Positions 674 to 13,151 of a DNA stretch of 32,000 nucleotides are shown one piece after another. The notes beneath the pieces were generated by a model. That model was not told where the DNA came from, searched no databases, and saw only the letters and a program-made list of their open reading frames with translations. Positions within the stretch are counted from its first letter, which is position 1. Every line of letters starts with the position of its first letter. A program made the position numbers and the translations under genes. Source of the stretch: Symploca sp. SIO3C6 (GTDB lineage Bacteria > Cyanobacteriota > Cyanobacteriia > Cyanobacteriales > Coleofasciculaceae); assembly GCA_010692425.1 (NCBI GenBank), contig JAAHHJ010000019.1, positions 101,264-133,263 of the forward strand. The letters run 5' to 3'.

Positions 674-3600
674 TTATTTCCCTAAGCGCTGCGATTGAGC
701 TGTCATAGAGCGTGATTTATAGATTTGAGCAACAGTATCCTTGGGATTACAGTATAGACAATCTGCAAACCGTTCGCTTGCTTCCCTAAAAGCCTTCCTA
801 TGGTAGAGAAATAAACCTTCTTCAAAAATATGCTTAGTGGCTAATTTACCCTGTTTAATTTCTGGCTCGTCTGCGTCAAATAATTCAAAAACAGCCACAG
901 CTTTTGACTTACCCTTAACTTTAACTTTATCGATGAAGCGAATACTATACTCAGTAGGGTCTTGTAAGTAAGCTAAAGTTTGATGAGAGATTAACAGTGA
1001 CACCCCATAGTCTTTGGTGAGTTTTTCCAAACGAGCAGCTAAATTAACATCATCACTAATTACAGTGCTATCCATGCGGCTTTTTCCACCCACTGTACCC
1101 AGCATCAAATAACCTGTATTAATACCAATGCCAATCTTAATTGGGACATAGTTAGAATTAGCACGGTGTTGATTGTATATAGTTAGCCTCTGTAGCATAG
1201 AAATTCCGGCTTTGACAGCATTATCTGCATTGCCGCTAAACAGTGCCATAATTCCATCGCCAACGTATTTATCAATAAAACCTTGATTTTCGATAATTGC
1301 TGGCTCCATACGAGAGAGATAGGCATTAATGAATTTGAAATTATCCTCTGGGGTTAAACTTTCCGAGAGAGTAGTGAAAGAGCGAATATCGGAAAATAGA
1401 ATAGACATCTGACGTTGCACATTATCCCCTAGCTCCACATCAATGATGCTCGACTTATTCAACAACTGGAGAAATTGACGCGGCACAAATCGACTATAAG
1501 AAGTGTTGAGTTTAGACAATTGCAGATGAGTGTGGAGTCTAGCTAGTAGTTCGTTCTTGGAAATTGGCTTAGCCAGATAATCGTTAGCACCAACGCTTAA
1601 TCCTGTTACTATGTCATGAACTTGATTTTTAGCTGTTAGCATTACTATCGGCAGTTCATTAGCCGGAAAGTTTTCGCGGAGCTGGCGACAAACTTCATAG
1701 CCAGTCATTCTCGGCATCATTACATCAAGTAAAATCAGGTCTGGTTGGAAACCCTTATCAATCATTGCCAATGCCTCGATCCCATTTGAGGCTTGAGTAA
1801 TAGCATAGTTTTCTAAAGAAAGATGATTTACCAATACCTGAAGATTAATAGGTTCATCATCTACAATCAGGATCCTAAACTGCTTGTTTTTGTCTTGGTC
1901 AAGTTCAGGTTTTTGCTCAGTTGTCAATGGCACTTGCTCATTAACTTCCGATTTCAAAGGCAGAAGGCAGCTAGCAGGGAACTGACTATTGATAACTGAT
2001 GAGGAACCATTCGCCACTGGCAGTGTGAAGATAAAGCGCGAACCCTTTCCCACTTGCGAGTTTACCCACACCTTTCCCCCATGCAACTCCACCAACTGTT
2101 TAGTGACTGTTAAACCTAAACCAGTGCCACCGTGCTCACGTGCCATAGAACCATCAGCTTGGGCAAAAGATTCAAAGATGTGTTCAAATTGCTCTTCCCT
2201 AATGCCAATGCCAGTATCAGAAACAGCAATTACCAAGTGAGGGGATTGGGGATCGGGGGAATCTTCCCAGTACTCATTCACCAACTCGGCTGTAATTTCT
2301 ACGGTACCGCTATCTGTGAACTTAATCGCATTGCCCACTAGGTTGTGCATAATTTGTTGCAAGCGATTTTCATCAGCCTTGGCTAGAGGCAAATTAGGGG
2401 GAATGGCGTTAATTAACTGTAAATCTTTATTGCCCACTAGCGGTTGGCTCAGGGTAAGAACAATCTCGGCAATTTCCCTTACTCCTACCTGTCTGAGTTT
2501 GAGCTCAAGACTCTTGTGCTTCAATTTGGAGAAATCAAGCAGGTCACTCACCAAACTATTGAGCCGATGCCCGCTATTGGCAATCATTAACAGATTTTTC
2601 TGCTGAAGTGCTGTGATTGCTCCTGCAGCTCCGTCAATGAGAGACTCAGCAATACCAATCATACCATTGAGGGGCGTCCGCAGTTCATGGGAGGTATTGG
2701 CTAAAAATTCATCTTTGAGTTTATCTAGACGCTGCAAGTCGGCATTAGCCTGTTTGAGTTCCTCCTCACGCCTTCGTAACCTGATTGTTGCTCTTTCCAC
2801 TGCTGCTTGCAGTCGTGCCGGAGCACTTACTAGAATGAACATCAAGCCCCCCGCTAAGATTGCTAGCAACCCTCCTCCCATCCACAAGGCTCCAGAAATA
2901 GGGGCAGTTTTGGGCCAGCCTTGGGCAGGGACTGCTGCTAACTGCCAGGAGCCATTGGGCAGACTTACTTCTAAAGTCACTGGCTCTCGCTCGAAAATGT
3001 CGGCATCTCCCAAGAAAACTTCTCCAGCAGCACCCAATCCATCCTTGCCTCGAACAGTGTACTGAAGTTGAGTTGAGATATTGAGCAATCCTGCTTCTGC
3101 AAATAGGGTATCTTGATCAATAATGATGCCCACTAAACCCCAGTAATCTCCACTTTCAGGAATACCATCGGCAGGGGTTAGAAAAATCGGGGTGCGACTG
3201 ATGAAAACTACGCCTTCTGGGACTAATTCGATTGGTCCTGCAAAGACGGTGCTTCTGTTTTTAATTGCTCTCTTAATCGCTTCCCGTTCTGCGGGGATTG
3301 ACATTGGGTTAAAGTTGATTGTACCTTCTTTCCCTGCTAAGGGGTAGATATGAGAGACGATTGTGTCCTTATAGAGGGCCAAACTACGGATGCCTGATTG
3401 CTGCGCCACAATTACTCTAGCTAGGCTTTCAAACTTCTTTTGGTTAATGTAAGGATCAATAGTCGAGATATATGCTTCCAAACCGCGCGTGAGATATATT
3501 CTTTGGTTGACTACCTGTTCAAGACGAGCTCTGACGGCACTCAATTGGTTGATAACATTGACGCGATTTTCTTCAAGAAAACGTTTTCTTTCTGAACGGT

Positions 3601-3736
3601 CTAGTACCCAGACAATAGCCAAAACCATTGCTACTGTTAAGGTAGCGGCGATATATGGGCGCGGGGCTCTAGCTATTGTACTGATAAATTTTCCAGAAAG
3701 TCTGGAAAATATTTGGTTTAAGGATTTAATTGGCAT
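674..3736 (-). CDS. Hybrid sensor: TM-CHASE-TM, HisKA/HATPase histidine kinase, receiver domain, class III adenylate/guanylate cyclase
   Basis: 1020-aa ORF. The N-terminal TM segment and CHASE-like periplasmic region read [32 protein letters not shown]...[10 protein letters not shown]. The H-box is [18 protein letters not shown]. The ATPase G-boxes are DTGIGI and GGTGLGL. The receiver reads [11 protein letters not shown]...[14 protein letters not shown]...MLTAK. The cyclase reads [14 protein letters not shown]...[11 protein letters not shown]...GINTG...[10 protein letters not shown]. Confidence 0.9.
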
Positions 3737-3804
3737 TGGAATCCCAAGAAAGTGCGCTCCTAAGAAGCAATTGCCCTCTGTTAGCCAATTTATCTAACTA
3801 ATTA

Positions 3805-3878
3805 GGGCAACAGTACCTAGCCCTCCAAAGGGGTGAGGATTTCAAGCTCCCTCTTGGTACTCTACACAGTTGTTGCCC
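3805..3878. repeat. Imperfect palindromic element (small MITE/REP-like hairpin)
   Basis: GGGCAACA (3805-3812) pairs with TGTTGCCC (3871-3878), and GTACC (3813-3817) pairs with GGTAC (3856-3860). It lies between two minus-strand genes. Confidence 0.4.
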
Positions 3879-4081
3879 ATAATTCAGTCTATTTCTTAGG
3901 AACGTTCAATTTTGGTAAGCTATTCCACATTTAACTTGTAACTTGCCTATTTTGAACGGGCAGATGACGGTAGATAACGGGCGAGACGCCCATCCCACAG
4001 CCATGTCACAAGAAACTGATAATTTTTTATGTAAATTAAATGGGTTTTAGCTGAGCACGCTCTCCTTCAGGAGAGGGAGTG

Positions 4082-4837
4082 TCAATACCGTTGACATACT
4101 AAGAGTGTTCCTTTTTCCCCACGAGTTATCCGCATTTCTTCATCCAGATAGAGAATTTCTAAACTGCCTTTGGGTGATCTGTTCATGGTAAAAGAAACTT
4201 CTCCAGTATCTGGATTCATTGCTTGCGGTGGCACTAAACCGAACATTAGTCGGAAGAAACCGGAGATGAACCTTTCTTGCCAGCTTTTCTGTGAAGACTG
4301 GCGCTGCTTGCCAAAAACCTCTTGCCAATCTTTGATGTTTGTTCCCTCTTGGGGGGCTAGAGTTCCACCTGTAAATTTTACTTGCAATTTTGTATCACTA
4401 ATAGGATGACAGACTCCTTGATTGTGGACAATTCCAGTTAACTTGGGAAAAGACTCATCAATTGTAGTAAATTCCACAACAATATCGTGACTTCGTTGCT
4501 GTTTATTTTCCAGCAAGCGGACAGGTTGTAGAACTCTGTCAATAACCAATTTTAGTTGTGTGGGTTGAAACATATTAAAAGCCAGACGACCGAGGGTATA
4601 GGTAAATTTGCCATCTGGAAGTTGCTTCCCTCCTGGAAAATTCGGCGCGTTAATCAACAACCATTCACTATCGAGTAGTGTTTCACTACGTGCTGGTGCT
4701 GTGGTTGGATTCAGTTGGGTCAGATTATCAATAGCAGCAATTACGGCTTCGTCCTTGGTATTCCCACCGTTAGCAGCAAGTGCCTGACGCAAAGCTGTTT
4801 TCGCCGTTTCACATTTTCCTGTATCTAGTACTGTCAT
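4082..4837 (-). CDS. PAP/fibrillin (plastid lipid-associated protein) family protein
   Basis: 251-aa ORF. The N-terminal pattern K..L...I.....G......I..AID.L..LNPT..P....LLDSEW.L is typical of cyanobacterial fibrillins. Confidence 0.6.
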   Translation of the reverse strand: MTVLDTGKCETAKTALRQALAANGGNTKDEAVIAAIDNLTQLNPTTAPARSETLLDSEWLLINAPNFPGGKQLPDGKFTYTLGRLAFNMFQPTQLKLVIDRVLQPVRLLENKQQRSHDIVVEFTTIDESFPKLTGIVHNQGVCHPISDTKLQVKFTGGTLAPQEGTNIKDWQEVFGKQRQSSQKSWQERFISGFFRLMFGLVPPQAMNPDTGEVSFTMNRSPKGSLEILYLDEEMRITRGEKGTLLVCQRY

Positions 4838-6889: not shown

Positions 6890-7018
6890 TTATTCTTCTA
6901 GGCTGACTTGTATTCGAGAGCTAAGAGGCGTTGTACTTCGTCAAGCGTGAAAACTACTCTAAGTTAGATGGGTATTTAAATTCCAACCAAATTAAAGCAA
7001 CGTATAGACGATTAGTTA

Positions 7019-7078
7019 ACCTCTCCTCACGTTAAAACGATGAGAATTCAAGCAGTTGTTACGAAGCCCATTAAATTG
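7019..7078 (-). mobile_element. Orphan fragment homologous to the right end (putative omega-RNA 3' region) of the tnpB element at 13187-13245
   Basis: The minus strand of 7019-7053 reads gcttgaattctcatcgttttaacgtgaggagaggt. Positions 13211-13245 read gcttgaatcctcgtcgttttaacgccaggagaggt. That is 31 of 35 identical by my hand alignment. Weaker similarity continues for about 24 nt further upstream. No tnpB coding sequence is attached. Confidence 0.55.
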
Positions 7079-7100
7079 ATAATAGTTATGAGTTTAGATT

Positions 7101-7160
7101 GCTCATAGCCATGAACCATGAGCAATGAACTATGAGCAATGAACCATGAACCATGAACTA
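7101..7160. repeat. STRR-like heptamer tandem repeat (CCATGAA family), about 8.5 units
   Basis: Direct reading gives gctcata gccatga accatga gcaatga actatga gcaatga accatga accatga act. Confidence 0.9.
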
Positions 7161-7229
7161 TTTCAAAATGCCATAATAGCGGTGAAACTCCTCAATCACG
7201 ATTAATCGCCACCGCAGAATTAAACTATC

Positions 7230-7637
7230 ATGACACTGGAATTATTCACCGCAGAAAAAATAGCTGAATTGGCATTTGGCGCAGTTATCGAAACTGGCAC
7301 TAGTGAATTAGTTAAAAAGTTGTGGGGGAAAATTCGCAACAAACTTAGGGGTGAACCTGTCGCCGAAGCAGCTTTAGTGGAAATTGAGCAAAATCATTCT
7401 AAGGAGCAGCTAGCGAAGATTGTGCCTTTTCTACAGGTGGAGATGCTTAAAGATCAGCAGTTTGCCCAGGAAATGCAAGCTTTGGCTAATGAAATTAACA
7501 CGGGATCTCAAGAGAATATTACCCAGCAGGATTTTGAAGCTCGTGATAATGCTGGTGTTGTTGGCAAGCAAGTAGGAACAGTTAACAAGGCAGGTGTCAC
7601 TGAAATTGGCTATCAGATTAACCTGGGAAACCAGTAA
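7230..7637 (+). CDS. Small helical protein with a G/N/Q/V-rich C-terminal tail; candidate N-terminal or effector module of the downstream NLR-like protein
   Basis: 135-aa ORF. Residues 1-95 are predicted helical, with an amphipathic start (IAELAFGAVIETGTS). Residues 106-135 read DNAGVVGKQVGTVNKAGVTEIGYQINLGNQ. It ends 4 nt after a slippery heptamer and lies directly upstream of the NB-ARC ORF. Confidence 0.6.
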   Translation: MTLELFTAEKIAELAFGAVIETGTSELVKKLWGKIRNKLRGEPVAEAALVEIEQNHSKEQLAKIVPFLQVEMLKDQQFAQEMQALANEINTGSQENITQQDFEARDNAGVVGKQVGTVNKAGVTEIGYQINLGNQ

Positions 7638-7706
7638 CGGCAACTGAATATACTCAAATCCTAGAGGTTGTTAAAAAACTTGGGCAAGGGAATCCCTCAG
7701 TTGCCG
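7625..7706 (+). promoter_or_regulatory. Candidate programmed -1 ribosomal frameshift cassette: slippery G_GGA_AAC, a 6-nt spacer carrying the 0-frame TAA, then a 10-bp stem
   Basis: Positions 7625-7631 are G GGA AAC in the 0 frame of the 7230 ORF, matching X_XXY_YYZ. The stop TAA is at 7635-7637. CGGCAACTGA (7638-7647) is the exact reverse complement of TCAGTTGCCG (7697-7706). The -1 frame is the NB-ARC ORF frame and is open from 7622. Confidence 0.45.
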
Positions 7707-7717
7707 CTTCCACTAAC

Positions 7718-10318
7718 TTGATTACCACTCCGCCCAATTTAAATAACTGGCTGGGTAGAAAAGAGGAAATTAGTCAACTGCAAACCTGGCTCTGTGATAC
7801 CACAGTTAACCTGATTGGTATTCAGGGTTTGGGTGGTGTCGGCAAATCGGCTTTGGCGGCTTATGTTTACAAACATATCGAGTTTTCCGATAAATTTTGG
7901 GCAGATATTAGTCAGAAGCCTGATTTTGTCGTCTTTGCTGAGAAGGTAATTACTGCCTTGGGTGGGCAAGTTACTAAGCAAGGAGATATCGACGAATTGA
8001 TTAATGATTTGCTCACCTGCCTTAGTCAGCGTCGGTGTTTGCTGGTGGTGGATAATCTTGAAACCCTGCTCACTCAATCGCGGCAGTGGCAAGATTCAAA
8101 CTATGAGAAATTTTTCAACCGTTGGCTACAGCAGGGAAGTCACAGCACATTGCTACTAACTACCCATGAAAAACCGATTCTGTTTCAAGCACAACCCTGT
8201 TGGTATCTGTTGCCGGGAATGAACATTAGCGATGGTGGGCTACTTTTGCAGCAGTTGGGTATTCAAGAAACTATTGCGCAACTAAAACTATTTTCTCAAG
8301 CAGTGGATGGGCATCCCCTAACCTTGCAGTTAGTGGCTGGTTATTTAAGGGAATACTGTAATAGTCAGTTGAGTGGTGCTTGGGAATTAGGATTAGAGCA
8401 GTTTGAGTTAGTAGCACAAGCCCAAGGACTACACCGGGATAAGCAAGATGTTCGTTTATCGTGGATTTTGCAGCAGCACTTTCAGCGCTTAACCCCTGTG
8501 CAGCACAATTTCCTGGTTAAATTGAGTGTTTATCGGCAAGCATTTAACCACCAAGCGGCTGGTTGGATGTGGGCTTCAGAAACAGAAGCAGTTAAGCCAG
8601 TGGTAGTGCAAAAGGAATTACGGGAACTATTCAACCGCTCCCTATTGCTGGAAACAGAAGATGGAAAGTATCGATTTCAGCCTTTGGTACAACAATATGC
8701 TCAGCAGCAAGGTATTGATATCAATACTGCTCACCAAAAAGCGATCGCATATTATAAATCCAATACTCAACAACCACCCTGGCAGACGCTAGAGGATGCC
8801 AGAGCGTATCTGGAAATTGTCTATCACTACTGTCAATTAGAACAATACCAACAGGCGATTGAATACCTTCAGCAGTCTTTGCAGATTTTTCAAGAAATAG
8901 TCGAGATCTCTGGGATTGTCACTTCTCTGGGTAATCTGAGCAATGTATACAATTCCCTCGGACAATACCAACAGACGATCGAATACTATCAGCAGTCGTT
9001 ACAGATTCAACAAGAAATAGGCGATCACTCTGGGATTGTCACTTCTCTGGGTAATCTGGGCAATGCATATAATTCCCTCGGACAATACCAACAGGCGATA
9101 GAATACTATCAGCAGTCGTTACAGATTGCTCAAGAAATAGGCGAGCGCTCTGGGATTGCCAATTCTCTAGGTAATCTGGGCAATGCATACGATTCCCTAG
9201 GACAATACCAACAGGCGATAGAATACCATCAGCAGTCGTTACAGATTGCTCAAGAAATAGGCGCTCGCTCTGGTATTGCCACTTCTCTCAATAATCTGGG
9301 CAATGCATACAATTCTCTAGGACAATACCAACAGGCGATAGAATACTATCAGCAGTCGTTAGAGATTTTTCAGGAAATAGGCGATCGCTCAGGTATTGCC
9401 AAATCTCTGAATAATCTGGGCAGTGCATACTATTCCCTAGGACAATACCAACAGGCGATAGAATACTATCAGCAGTCGTTACAGATTGATCAAGAAATCG
9501 GCGCTCGCTCTGGGATTGCCAAATCTCTGAATAATCTGGGCAGTGCATACTATTCCCTAGGACAATACCAACAGGCGATAGAATACCTTCAGCAGTCGTT
9601 ACAGATTGATCAAGAAATCGGCGATCGCTCAGGTATTGCCAATTCTCTCAATAATCTGGGCAATGCATACAAATCCCTAGGACAATACCAACAGGCGATA
9701 GAATACTATCAGCAGTCGTTACAGATTTTTCAGGAAATCGGCGATCGCTCTAGAATTGCCTATTCTCTGATTGGTCTGGGCAAAGCATACAATTTCCTCG
9801 GACAATACCAACAGGCGATAGAATACCTTCAGCAATCGTTACAGATTTTTCAGGAAATAGGCGATCGCTCAGGTATTGCCAATTCTCTAGGTAATCTGGG
9901 CAATGCATACAAATCCCTAGGACAATACCAACAGGCGATAGAATACCATCAGCAGTCGTTACAGATTTTTCAAGAAATAGGCGATCGCAAAGGAGAAGCT
10001 AATTCCCTTCAAACTCTAGCAGCTCTGTATCATAAGACTGGCAGAGTGCAGCAAGGATTTGCCACTAGCTATCAAGCTACCCAGATTTTGCAAGAATTTG
10101 AGCTTCCCCTGGATGTTTGGTCTATACCCAAGTGGATGAAATCGATAGCTAAATTTGCTCAACGGGGTAAGTGGCAATTGGTTTTATCCTTTGTTGCAGT
10201 GCTAGTGGCGTTTCCTTTTGCCTTGGTTATATTTGTGCTGTTGATGCTATGGCTACTGTTAAGCGCTCCTCTGAGACGACGCCGAGCTGATAAAGATATT
10301 CACACCCCTACAAATTAA
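7718..10318 (+). CDS. NB-ARC (AP-ATPase/STAND) NTPase with a 10-11 unit TPR array and a C-terminal transmembrane anchor (bacterial NLR-like protein)
   Basis: Walker A is GIQGLGGVGKSALA. Walker B is CLLVVDNLE. The RNBS-B-like motif is LLLTTHEKP and the GLPL-like motif is GHPLTLQLVAG. Tandem 40-aa TPR units follow, then the hydrophobic tail WQLVLSFVAVLVAFPFALVIFVLLMLWLLLSAPL and RRRR. The track start is TTG with no visible SD. The frame is open for 32 codons upstream (from 7622) without ATG or GTG, so translation may enter from the upstream ORF. Confidence 0.85.
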   Translation: MITTPPNLNNWLGRKEEISQLQTWLCDTTVNLIGIQGLGGVGKSALAAYVYKHIEFSDKFWADISQKPDFVVFAEKVITALGGQVTKQGDIDELINDLLTCLSQRRCLLVVDNLETLLTQSRQWQDSNYEKFFNRWLQQGSHSTLLLTTHEKPILFQAQPCWYLLPGMNISDGGLLLQQLGIQETIAQLKLFSQAVDGHPLTLQLVAGYLREYCNSQLSGAWELGLEQFELVAQAQGLHRDKQDVRLSWILQQHFQRLTPVQHNFLVKLSVYRQAFNHQAAGWMWASETEAVKPVVVQKELRELFNRSLLLETEDGKYRFQPLVQQYAQQQGIDINTAHQKAIAYYKSNTQQPPWQTLEDARAYLEIVYHYCQLEQYQQAIEYLQQSLQIFQEIVEISGIVTSLGNLSNVYNSLGQYQQTIEYYQQSLQIQQEIGDHSGIVTSLGNLGNAYNSLGQYQQAIEYYQQSLQIAQEIGERSGIANSLGNLGNAYDSLGQYQQAIEYHQQSLQIAQEIGARSGIATSLNNLGNAYNSLGQYQQAIEYYQQSLEIFQEIGDRSGIAKSLNNLGSAYYSLGQYQQAIEYYQQSLQIDQEIGARSGIAKSLNNLGSAYYSLGQYQQAIEYLQQSLQIDQEIGDRSGIANSLNNLGNAYKSLGQYQQAIEYYQQSLQIFQEIGDRSRIAYSLIGLGKAYNFLGQYQQAIEYLQQSLQIFQEIGDRSGIANSLGNLGNAYKSLGQYQQAIEYHQQSLQIFQEIGDRKGEANSLQTLAALYHKTGRVQQGFATSYQATQILQEFELPLDVWSIPKWMKSIAKFAQRGKWQLVLSFVAVLVAFPFALVIFVLLMLWLLLSAPLRRRRADKDIHTPTN
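8812..9990 (+). repeat. Intragenic tandem repeat with a 120-bp period, about 10 units, encoding 40-aa TPR units
   Basis: The motif ggacaataccaacaggcgatagaatac recurs at 8960, 9080, 9200, 9320, 9440, 9560, 9680, 9800 and 9920, with a diverged copy at 8840. The units are nearly identical at the DNA level. Confidence 0.95.
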
Positions 10319-10378: not shown

Positions 10379-10521
10379 CCCTTCACCCGCCTGGGGTTCA
10401 AACCCCAGTCTAATAGCTTAAGTCCTCTAAAAGAGGACTAAACACTAACCCTACATAGATTTCAGTCCATTTTAATGGACTTTTGTTATTAGCCCAGAGT
10501 TTGAACTCTGGGTGGGAAGGG
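10379..10521. mobile_element. MITE-like element of about 143 bp with imperfect terminal inverted repeats of about 29 bp and two internal hairpins
   Basis: The left end is cccttcacccgcctggggttcaaaccccag. The reverse complement of the right end is cccttcccacccagagttcaaactctggg. The internal hairpins are agtcctctaaaagaggact and agtccattttaatggact. Confidence 0.65.
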
Positions 10522-10687: not shown

Positions 10688-10930
10688 CTATGTAGGTGGG
10701 CCAAAATGATCTGGCAATTCTTCAAAACTAATACCTAATGCCTTGCAAAGAGCTCTCATCTGAGGCACACTCATCATTGCTGGAGACGCTCCCCTTTCCC
10801 AACGACTAATAGTTGCCACAGCTACACCAATCCTAGTCGCCAACTCCTGTTGAGAGAGTCCAGCCGCTTCTCGAAGTCTTTTTAATGGAGACTCACCCTC
10901 CTCCGAGCCTGATTTATCTCTTTTTACCAT
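10688..10930 (-). CDS. XRE-family helix-turn-helix transcriptional regulator
   Basis: 80-aa ORF. LKRLREAAGLSQQELATRIGVAVATISRWERG is a classic HTH_3/XRE signature. Confidence 0.85.
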   Translation of the reverse strand: MVKRDKSGSEEGESPLKRLREAAGLSQQELATRIGVAVATISRWERGASPAMMSVPQMRALCKALGISFEELPDHFGPPT

Positions 10931-11902: not shown

Positions 11903-13151
11903 CTGTACGGATGCCAACAAATACGGATGCCAACAAATAAGGCTTCATCCCGATGAATTATAAAAAGAGATTTTGGTGTTTATCTGTCAGCAAGCTAACA
12001 AGCTAGTTAATTGCGGCATATATTTGTTGAGGCAAGCATTTTTCACCTTTGGTCAAGTAGAACATGATGCCTATTCTCTCCACGCAGAACTTAAAGACAA
12101 TCCTCATTTTAAGATTTTGAGGTCAGCAGTTGCTCAGCAGGTACTCACAGGAGTAGCTGAATCTTTTAAGTCCTATAAAGAGTTGATAAATAAGTTCTTC
12201 AAAGGACAAATATCAGACAAAACCAAGCTGCCCAAATATCGGAAAAAAGACGGCTTGGCTACTATTTCATACCCTGCTAGATGGGTATCATTTTATCTGG
12301 AAACAGGTCAGGTCTTACTTAGTCTGGGCAAGACATTTAAGGAGTGGTTTGGAATTGAACACATTCAAGTGCCACCTCCCTATGGACTTCGTGTCAAAGA
12401 CATTGCCGAGATTCGGATTCTACCTAAAAATGGCTGCTTTTACGCTGAATACACTTACAAAATGCAGCCACAAATTGTGGATTTATCAGACAAGGCTTTA
12501 GGTATAGATCCAGGTTTGAACAACTGGTTAACCTGTGTTTCTACTGACGGAGACAGCTTTATTGTCGATGGCAGGAAAGTTAAAAGTCTTAACCAGTGGT
12601 ACAACAAGCAAGTGGCTAAGGGAAAAAAGAACAAGCCTCAAGATTACTGGGATGAGAAACTAGCTCAACTATCAGAGCGTCGTAATCGCCAGATGAGAGA
12701 TGCGGTTAACAAAGCAGCAAGATTAGTAATTAACTACTGCTTAAGTCATGAGATTGGCACGATTGTCTTTGGCTGGAACCAAGGCAATAAAAACCGTATT
12801 GAAATGGGCAAAAAGAACAACCAAGAGTTTGTAGGAGTGCCTACCGATAAACTCAAAGAACCTGTTACTCAGTTGTACCAACAGTATGGATTAAAATTTA
12901 TTGAAACCGCAGAATCTTACACCTCAAAGAGCAGTTTTTTAGACGGAGATTTCTTGCCAAAATTTGGTGAAAAACCCAAACGGTGGGAGCCATCCGGAAG
13001 ACGAGTATCTAGAGGTATGTATAGGACAAAGGATGGCATTGAAGTTAACGCAGATATTAACGGCGCTGCCAATATTTTGCGCAAAGTAGAGACACAGTTA
13101 AGTGTAAACTTAGCCAAGGTCTGTAGGGTATTTTTGAGGAGTGCCTACTAG
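11903..13151 (+). pseudogene. tnpB: TnpB (RNA-guided RuvC endonuclease family, cyanobacterial zinc-finger-less type) with a damaged 5' end
   Basis: The RuvC triad candidates are GIDPGLNN (D), ETAESYTSK (E) and NADINGAANILRK (D). The N-terminal motif YGCQQ occurs twice because of a 16-bp tandem duplication, tacggatgccaacaaa, at 11906-11921 and 11922-11937. This duplication shifts the frame. An in-frame TAA also lies at 11961-11963. The longest intact ORF is 11973-13151 (TTG start, 392 aa). Confidence 0.7.

Follow-up and report, generated by a model that had tools for sequence, protein, structure and literature searches.

The DNA analysed here is a stretch of 32,000 nucleotides (nt) from the cyanobacterium Symploca sp. 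SIO3C6 (contig JAAHHJ010000019.1, positions 101,264 to 133,263 of the forward strand), referred to below as the window. The element in question is the junction of two overlapping open reading frames (ORFs) on its + strand, which probably contains a programmed −1 ribosomal frameshift site. The upstream frame, ORF1 (7230–7637), encodes 135 residues in frame 0 and is the predicted major product of the locus. The downstream frame (7622–10318, with its stop codon at 10316–10318) lies in the −1 frame on the same strand, comprises 898 codons and encodes an NLR-like protein. The latter contains an NB-ARC domain (approximately 7760–8350; Pfam E = 9.9e-10, above the gathering score), including the P-loop or Walker A motif GLGGVGKS (7826–7849), and a TPR array (approximately 8760–10120; TPR_12 E = 3e-145). 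STAND/NLR-like NTPases typically combine such a Walker A-containing NB-ARC domain with a sensor domain of repeats on its C-terminal side. Because no terminator-like site was found between ORF1 and the NLR ORF, the sole site on the + strand being located past the NLR ORF at 10464–10481, we infer that the two presumably belong to a single transcription unit.

At the junction, the −1 frame is shut by a TAA codon at 7619–7621, just 5′ of the proposed slip site, and translation shows that both frames are open solely across positions 7622–7637. ORF1 ends with the codons AAC CTG GGA AAC CAG TAA, and the slippery heptamer G_GGA_AAC (7625–7631) is located within the overlap and in the register of ORF1 (G / GGA / AAC). 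It is followed by a 6-nt spacer, CAGTAA (7632–7637), which includes the ORF1 stop codon (7635–7637), and then by a potential RNA stem of 10 base pairs (bp), in which the 5′ arm CGGCAACTGA (7638–7647) is fully complementary to the 3′ arm TCAGTTGCCG (7697–7706) across a loop of 49 nt. Two overlapping ORFs of which the 3′ one is in the −1 frame, a heptamer inside the overlap in the 0-frame register, and a putative stimulatory RNA structure starting 5–9 nt past the heptamer are the hallmarks of a −1 frameshift cassette. The predicted product of a −1 slip is a protein of 1029 residues with YQINLGN joined to PVTATEY at the junction; the predicted junction-spanning (trans-frame) peptide is ...INLGNPVTATEY..., and the predicted trans-frame tryptic peptide is AGVTEIGYQINLGNPVTATEYTQILEVVK. 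The positions of the ORFs, overlap, heptamer, spacer, stop codon and stem, as well as the junction and the fusion size of about 1029 residues, had been proposed in an earlier sequence-only reading and were all reproduced by reading and translating the DNA. That reading had expected, at uniform base composition, about one in-register heptamer per 256 codons; the rate is in fact higher, heptamers of the type XXXYYYZ being found at 50 of the 7066 codons (0.7%) of the long ORFs in the window. At this rate, the chance of an in-register heptamer in a 5-codon overlap is approximately 3.5%, which is still small.

The junction was compared among 39 related loci. All counts refer to distinct loci, i.e., ten with the NLR in the −1 frame (the window included) and approximately ten of other arrangement. 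Three arrangements are observed: class A, with the NLR in the −1 frame; class B, with an in-frame TGA; and class C, with separate genes. Within class A, the heptamer G_GGA_AAC and a single codon before TAA (cag in the window) are shared with L031 (78% ORF1 identity; cgg) and the TARA locus L032 (72%; ggt). G_GGA_AAG is found in L001 (= L006; 92% identity) and L039 (98%), each with gag TAA, in L033 (67%; aat TAA) and in L002 (63%), where TAG follows directly. A_AAA_AAG is directly followed by TAA in L004 (= L005; 69%) and L034 (66%), and by TAG in L035 (47%). Hence, an in-register slippery heptamer of one of these three types is present 0–1 codon before the ORF1 stop in all ten distinct −1-frame loci, compared with none of the approximately ten distinct class B and C junctions near the stop. 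The heptamers differ by coordinated changes: at the equivalent ...IN(V/L)(K/G)K position, L035 has gtA_AAA_AAG and L002 has ctG_GGA_AAG, three substitutions that occur together and keep the XXX triplet. The slippery site and the frame relation are thus conserved across diverged orthologues, as in genuine frameshift cassettes. An alignment of orthologues had been suggested by the sequence-only reading as a check on its proposal; the alignment made here reveals that the heptamer is kept in all −1-frame loci, that the stem is partly conserved with some compensatory change, and that the −1-frame relatives are neither uninterrupted single ORFs nor well-initiated independent genes. Because the heptamer tracks the −1 arrangement and changes identity while staying slippery, programmed frameshifting is favoured over coincidence.

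The same comparison bears on the possibility that an ancestral single ORF, encoding an ORF1-type (Bell-like, see below), an NB-ARC and a TPR domain, has suffered a 1-nt indel near GGGAAA, the locus then being a pseudogene or wrongly assembled. Homopolymer runs are error-prone, and single-ORF fusions of this composition do occur in distant relatives (P0073 and P0118). Nevertheless, this explanation is largely refuted and retains only a very slight probability, as an equal frame relation is seen in at least eight independent assemblies (from NCBI metagenome-assembled genomes, ENA/TARA and Logan) with ORF1 identities of 47–99%, neither ORF is disrupted, three different heptamers are used, and the relatives retain the 0-frame stop as well as the tight overlap. 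Four of the at least eight independent assemblies that have the −1 arrangement in common show 93–99% ORF1 identity. In addition, dN/dS values of 0.08–0.2 among the three closest loci (the window, L031 and L032) indicate purifying selection on the NB-ARC region; more distant pairs give 0.44–0.72.

The segment between the heptamer and the TTG codon at 7718–7720, which ORF finders take as the start of the NLR, is a coding −1-frame linker, PVTATEYTQILEVVKKLGQGNPSVAASTN (7631–7717, + strand), without a canonical start codon. None of the triplets ATG, GTG and TTG is present in the 32 codons before TTG 7718, and no sequence resembling a Shine-Dalgarno (SD) motif was seen there on sequence reading, which bears out the earlier remark that start codons and an SD are missing upstream of this TTG. 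In class A the −1 frame encodes a homologous linker, ..T[AT]TEY..L[EG]...G[QK]G...V[AV][AST]S[TI]NLITTPPN, in which all indels among the relatives are multiples of three and stop codons are absent. The codon that matches TTG 7718 in the alignment is CTG or CTA in eight of ten relatives. The residues directly 5′ of it (VAAS.N) are kept, with V, S and N invariant and A-A mostly so, and their codons show synonymous variation (GCC/GCT/GCG/GCA, TCC/TCT/TCA and AAC/AAT). Because this codon is not conserved while the residues 5′ of it are, TTG 7718 is probably not the start codon of the NLR but an internal leucine codon. The first canonical start in the NLR frame lies inside the P-loop in L031, L002, L004 and L034, as well as in the class B locus L038. 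Judged from the open frame, the in-frame indels and the VAAS.N block, rather than from dN/dS, the linker looks like a translated but loosely constrained tether.

These features of the linker can be set against two explanations that dispense with a slip. In the first, ORF1 and the NLR are independently translated genes; initiation of the NLR would take place at TTG 7718 or on some non-canonical linker codon, and chance alone would account for the heptamer and the stem. This would agree with the ORF finders and deposited annotations, which start the NLR at the TTG, with the nearly exclusive annotation of ORF1 homologues as standalone proteins, and with the existence of a separate-gene arrangement in Microcystis relatives. 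It is nevertheless improbable: the TTG is replaced by CTG or CTA in most relatives while the residues preceding it are conserved, it has no SD-like sequence on reading, the first canonical start in L031, L002, L004 and L034 would truncate the ATPase, and the occurrence of the heptamer in all −1-frame loci and not elsewhere would be left unexplained. In the second explanation, ribosomes that terminate at the end of ORF1 restart without slipping on a near-cognate codon of the −1 frame, yielding an unfused NLR. The ORF1 stop is tightly beside the open −1 frame. Of the Bell/NLR gene pairs, 42% overlap (Dyrka et al., bioRxiv 10.1101/2020.01.06.895854); overlaps of this kind are typical of translationally coupled genes. 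Reinitiation, too, is given little weight here, as there is no conserved restart codon, and coupling needs no slippery heptamer, yet the heptamer is invariably present in the −1-frame loci. Moreover, an unfused class A NLR would carry no amyloid-type motif at its N-terminus, unlike the NLRs of the separate-gene arrangement.

The RNA stem was analysed in several ways. Perfect 10-bp stems that start 5–9 nt downstream and enclose a loop of 3–80 nt are possible at 0.09–0.10% of the positions in the window. The 81 nt past the heptamer fold with z = −2.56 in the window (a value reached by 5 of 200 shuffles), and with z = −3.97, −3.50 and −2.61 in L031, L032 and L001, respectively; the restricted folds of the G_GGA_AAC loci, with z = −2.6 to −4.0, are significant. 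For the AAG-type loci L002, L004 and L034 the 81-nt folds have z-scores near 0 and are not significant. The longer segment 7625–7730 has a non-significant minimum free energy (z = −1.33), and the signal is observed only in the restricted 81-nt fold. In an alignment of ten loci (A3) the helix of the window is paired in 83.5% of the cells, versus 12–49% if the 3′ arm is slid, where the tested helix structure is taken from one row of the alignment. Three pairs of the stem are changed on both sides, including a basal C-G pair replaced by U-A. Most class A loci keep a 7-bp core in which CAACUG(A) pairs with (U)CRGUUG, and in L001 and L039 half of this core is replaced by an alternative pairing of GAGGAA with UUCCUC. 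A search of positions 6900–8000 against Rfam gave no match.

With respect to efficiency, G_GGA_AAG and A_AAA_AAG rank among the top three −1 motifs of Escherichia coli, whereas G_GGA_AAC is weak in this organism, yet used by insertion sequence (IS) elements (Sharma et al. 2014, PMC4066793). As AAC in the A site favours −1 programmed ribosomal frameshifting (PRF) only weakly in E. coli, the fusion is probably a minor product. Strong stems are found together with the weak AAC heptamer and with the G_GGA_AAG locus L001, which would fit a stronger stimulator offsetting a weaker heptamer.

The cis-acting elements are thus conserved among the related loci; this holds for the slippery site, for the −1 relation of the frames, for a linker free of stops and, in part, for the stem, and the NLR is devoid of a conserved start codon. 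On this basis the G_GGA_AAC junction is, with high probability, a programmed −1 ribosomal frameshift site on a single ORF1–NLR mRNA. The sequence-only reading had arrived at the same interpretation, which is supported by the comparison of related loci; the slip itself, its rate and the signalling logic are what we infer. A number of points weigh against this assignment. G_GGA_AAC is a low-efficiency heptamer, although the figure is for E. coli and may differ with the tRNA-Asn of the cyanobacterial host. The motif in the ORF1 tail conserves L-G-K/N, and conservation of the heptamer could therefore be partly driven by the amino acids; for Leu-Gly, the encoding xxG GGA has a chance of approximately 0.13 per lineage. 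Similarly, the arms of the stem are located in conserved coding sequence (TATE and SVAA), and their conservation could in part be protein-driven. Little or no stem is formed in L002, L004, L034 and L035, and the 49-nt loop in the window is long, where the best-known cassettes have compact hairpins and pseudoknots. The covariation score of the stem is reached by none of 500 shuffles, a control that overstates the significance since the sequences are related. Finally, the linker has a dN/dS of 0.6–0.9 without a third-position bias (29 codons).

A fusion could also be encoded by some of the mRNAs if RNA polymerase added or deleted a base in a run of A or G residues. Long A runs can let RNA polymerase slip, and the seven consecutive A residues (gAAAAAAAg) of L004, L034 and L035 could allow such slippage at a low level. 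For the window this is very unlikely: only GGG and AAA triplets are present, far under the run lengths that give efficient slippage, and a strict codon register with a stem past the heptamer is characteristic of ribosomal PRF.

To appreciate what would be joined by such a frameshift, the ORF1 protein has to be considered. Its AlphaFold2 model consists of five helices over residues 8–98 and a disordered tail (94–135), with pLDDT values of 91–95 for the blocks in the range 31–90 and lower confidence at the N-terminus. The N-terminal sequence is MTLELFTAEKIAELAFGAVI, with a hydrophobic first helix. ORF1 thereby combines a helical bundle of approximately 100 residues, the first helix of which is hydrophobic, with an acidic residue close to the N-terminus, as is characteristic of Bell domains, and distant members of its family begin with MxDP[LIV]T, resembling the ‘MEPIS’ motif. 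ORF1 has no match in Pfam, NCBIfam or PADLOC, and a Foldseek comparison of the model with the Protein Data Bank (PDB) gave nothing with E < 0.5, the only hits being non-significant helical bundles. The label of a Bell-like effector, as used here, is based on the architecture and genomic context of ORF1, which resemble those of known Bell proteins.

The ORF1 family consists mostly of standalone proteins. A query with the N-terminus of the hypothetical fusion retrieved only standalone ORF1 homologues of 129–150 residues (44–99% identity) and separate NLR fragments, and no fused protein is present among these matches. A profile search of 1.84 billion representatives yielded 292 clusters of the ORF1 family, mostly standalone and of 120–150 residues. 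The exceptions include P0073 (967 residues) and P0118 (957 residues), in which an ORF1-type domain, NB-ARC and TPR are fused in a single ORF, P0131 (386 residues; an ORF1-type domain with NB-ARC), and P0113, in which an ORF1-type domain occurs with CHAT and TIR. Because such single-ORF fusions exist in distant relatives, the fused architecture is to all appearances viable, yet it is unused by the close relatives.

A further observation concerns the C-terminal ends of these proteins. Among the standalone proteins that represent the family (130 clusters at ≤50% identity), 26 end with G[KN]x, KK or KKx, and approximately 15 end with E-K-K(-x)-stop, the protein footprint that is expected of GAA_AAA_AAG followed by a stop codon. 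Such endings are found among P0007, P0009, P0022, P0024, P0027, P0031, P0034, P0039, P0054, P0055, P0056, P0065, P0089 and others, which suggests, from the protein ends, a wide distribution of A_AAA_AAG frameshift sites among the family members. A second heptamer was also noted in L035. After A_AAA_AAG (565–571) and the TAG codon of this locus, the linker is encoded in the −1 frame, with a module of approximately 70 residues, MERLKLIQTLNGIMPELLDTIILALEPPSGVIPPLSAAQGQRVSALLRWAESPGGCGL..., behind it; this module resembles an effector-associated or death-like adaptor domain, and the frame closes at TAG 871. Two codons 5′ of this TAG is a second in-register heptamer, A_AAC_CCT (861–867), and the NLR homology (KPSVAPSN...) restarts exactly at this heptamer, in the next −1 frame. 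L035 could thus contain two successive frameshifts, or else an assembly error in the Logan contig.

The C-terminal tail of ORF1 (approximately residues 100–134, ...ARDNAGVVGKQVGTVNKAGVTEIGYQINLGN; 7527–7631, + strand) is best understood by comparison with the class C loci (L008–10, L017–24 and L011). In these loci ORF1 ends with ...VSF or ...VNF and a TAA codon, followed by an intergenic gap of approximately 40–900 nt (40–200 nt in the Microcystis loci) and an NLR with its own ATG. In the Microcystis members the C-terminus of ORF1, NATAYDNSTVKMVGKIEADTVSF, is mirrored at the N-terminus of the NLR as LSATAQDQSKVNLIGKIETKNLIL. The ORF1 tails of class A hold a similar-looking motif, ..A[RH]D[NS][AS].VVGK[QA].G.., and the tail in the window resembles, by eye, the amyloid-signalling-type motif of these two-gene relatives. 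No second copy is present in the NLR frame of the window, which in this respect departs from the shared motif of BASS/NLR pairs. The class A NLR frame starts at what in class C is the stretch after the motif (SEELLNRLE is similar to TEYTQILEVVKK). Since the motif is missing from the class A NLR and present in the ORF1 tail, the frameshift site, as judged from these resemblances, falls exactly where a single shared copy of the motif would pass to the NLR.

In the class B loci the NLR is in the frame of ORF1, from which it is parted by a single TGA, and the frame is open directly after this codon. The TGA is located at 3974–3976 in L003, 3909–3911 in L036 (with which L037 is grouped), 3915–3917 in L038 and 3918–3920 in L007, and at 3870–3872 in the Microcystis loci L012–L015, L025–L027 and L030. 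The next base is C in most of the loci and A in two, and the first canonical start codon is 8–61 codons past the TGA, or is absent altogether. TGA accounts for only 16% of the long-ORF stops in these loci. L007 and the Microcystis group have a conserved hairpin, GCGGxUCUGC-N8-GCAGACGC, 3–4 nt past the TGA, of which only the loop varies. The class B junction looks like a programmed UGA readthrough that would do the job of the frameshift. Incorporation of selenocysteine at this TGA was considered, given the hairpin that follows, and is judged unlikely, as the position belongs to a variable linker.

A broader reading, which is put forward tentatively and as slightly short of an even chance, is that one cyanobacterial Bell-like/NLR family bridges its junction in three interchangeable ways: by −1 PRF on three different heptamers; by a leaky in-frame UGA, usually UGA-C and with a conserved hairpin in some lineages; and by two genes with a duplicated motif. 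Both recoding modes, PRF and UGA readthrough, would let a single motif copy serve both proteins and would fix a sub-stoichiometric ratio of sensor to effector, such that a rare fusion nucleates amyloid templating of the abundant effector.

For the window, programmed frameshifting could operate as follows. Most ribosomes would end at TAA 7635 and release the free 135-residue effector, with its Bell-like bundle and tail. A minority would stall while GGA occupies the P site and AAC the A site, with the stem 6 nt downstream probably holding them there, and slip back by one base onto GGG_AAA into the −1 frame. This would yield the 1029-residue fusion of Bell-like domain, tail, NB-ARC and TPR. By analogy to Bell/BASS–NLR and fungal HET-S/NWD2 pairs, the fusion may act as the sensor, with the sole copy of the tail motif placed N-terminal of the NLR. 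After activation and oligomerisation the fusion might nucleate an amyloid fold that templates the abundant free effector, which would then adopt a membrane-attacking form and bring about membrane damage or abortive cell death.

The locus shares properties with several known systems. Phage lambda G/GT uses G_GGA_AAG and E. coli dnaX uses A_AAA_AAG, the two heptamers that are also found in the relatives of the locus, and in both, as proposed here, −1 PRF fixes the ratio of two proteins with a common N-terminus. The dnaX shift truncates the protein, whereas the shift in the window would extend it by 895 residues, and an upstream SD-like stimulator as in dnaX was not seen at the window site on sequence reading. 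The P1–P2 junction of beet western yellows virus has a G_GGA_AAC heptamer and a spacer of approximately 6 nt. The window has the identical heptamer and a similar spacer; the virus, in contrast, is eukaryotic, uses a compact H-type pseudoknot as stimulator and shows no homology. The OrfA/OrfAB genes of IS3/IS1-family elements (IS911, IS3) likewise give a short upstream product and a minor trans-frame fusion, with a heptameric slip site (A_AAA_AAG, in some cases G_GGA_AAC or G_GGA_AAG) soon followed by a 0-frame stop and, after a few nt, by a stem-loop or pseudoknot (PMC4066793). Unlike these elements, the present locus is not mobile, its proteins are unrelated, its products would be an effector and an immune-type STAND ATPase, and its loop is 49 nt long.

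Bell/BASS–NLR pairs resemble the locus in having, in a cyanobacterium, a helical protein of approximately 120–140 residues directly 5′ of a collinear NB-ARC/TPR gene, and, like ORF1, their small proteins have a hydrophobic N-terminal helix and a C-terminal tail (Dyrka et al. 2020; Bab/Agp, bioRxiv 10.1101/2024.11.07.622273). The size of ORF1 and its cyanobacterial distribution likewise agree with these pairs. The duplicated motif that is canonical for Bell/BASS and HET-S/NWD2 pairs is seen in the Microcystis relatives. The NLR of the window, unlike those of Bell/BASS pairs, has neither a copy of the motif nor its own start codon, and the link to ORF1 would be made by recoding. Rare true Bell–NLR fusions do exist (Dyrka et al. 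2020, bioRxiv 10.1101/2020.01.06.895854). Frameshifting and readthrough are not mentioned in bioRxiv 10.1101/2020.01.06.895854 or 10.1101/2024.11.07.622273. A full-text literature search for PRF in connection with bacterial NB-ARC, NLR, STAND, Bell or antiphage systems found nothing relevant, the frameshifting in PMC13581612 being that of phage tail chaperones and not of NLRs, and it turned up no precedent to contradict the initial claim that programmed frameshifting had not been described for bacterial STAND/NLR systems. PRF and Bell/NLR pairs are each known, but their combination, coexisting with in-frame UGA and two-gene versions within one family, appears to be new.

Bacterial NLR/STAND proteins and amyloid effectors are now described as single fusions or as two-gene pairs, and a conserved recoding site, if true, would be a third, translational way to wire an effector to its sensor. 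Such a site would add to the few bacterial instances of −1 PRF outside mobile elements and phages, and would explain the many cyanobacterial NLR genes that are annotated as N-terminally truncated or startless. The arrangement offers a testable model of how an abortive-infection or cell-death pathway could fix its ratio of sensor to executioner, and the lineages with an in-frame UGA provide a natural comparison of frameshifting with readthrough as solutions to one problem.

Several additional features of the NLR were noted. Near its C-terminus is a hydrophobic segment of approximately 30 residues, WQLVLSFVAVLVAFPFALVIFVLLMLWLLLSAPL, followed by RRRR (10172–10273, + strand), which looks like a C-terminal membrane anchor and is unusual for an NB-ARC/TPR protein. 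The TPR array consists of 9.6 near-identical tandem repeats of 120 nt (8838–9988; 89% matches); such arrays can expand, contract and recombine, which would fit a rapid diversification of the NLR sensor. In L002 (approximately 4650–4700), L004 (approximately 4700–4760), L003, L036 and L038 a low-complexity insertion rich in Pro, Ser and Thr (...YLY..SPTSPASP...) is located just past the Walker A motif; it is missing from the NLR of the window. The NLR ORF is short in L002 (320 codons) and L003 (142 codons), and some NLR copies may be degraded.

Upstream of ORF1, a promoter-like site with only a weak match to the consensus, from which the proposed single mRNA would start, is located at 7056–7083 (+ strand). 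Between this site and the ORF1 start is a tandem repeat of the heptanucleotide CCATGAA (7107–7161), with approximately seven copies and super-periods of 14 and 28 nt, as is usual for short tandem repeats in filamentous cyanobacteria. Near the locus, the window contains a small HTH gene of the XRE type (10688–10930, − strand) and a TnpB/IS605 OrfB-like ORF (11973–13151, + strand). In L004 an OrfB_IS605 gene and a 70-residue HTH_3 gene (1867–3180 and 3704–3916) are located directly 5′ of the ORF1 homologue, and a small regulator or mobile element may be recurrently associated with the locus, as seen in the window and in L004.

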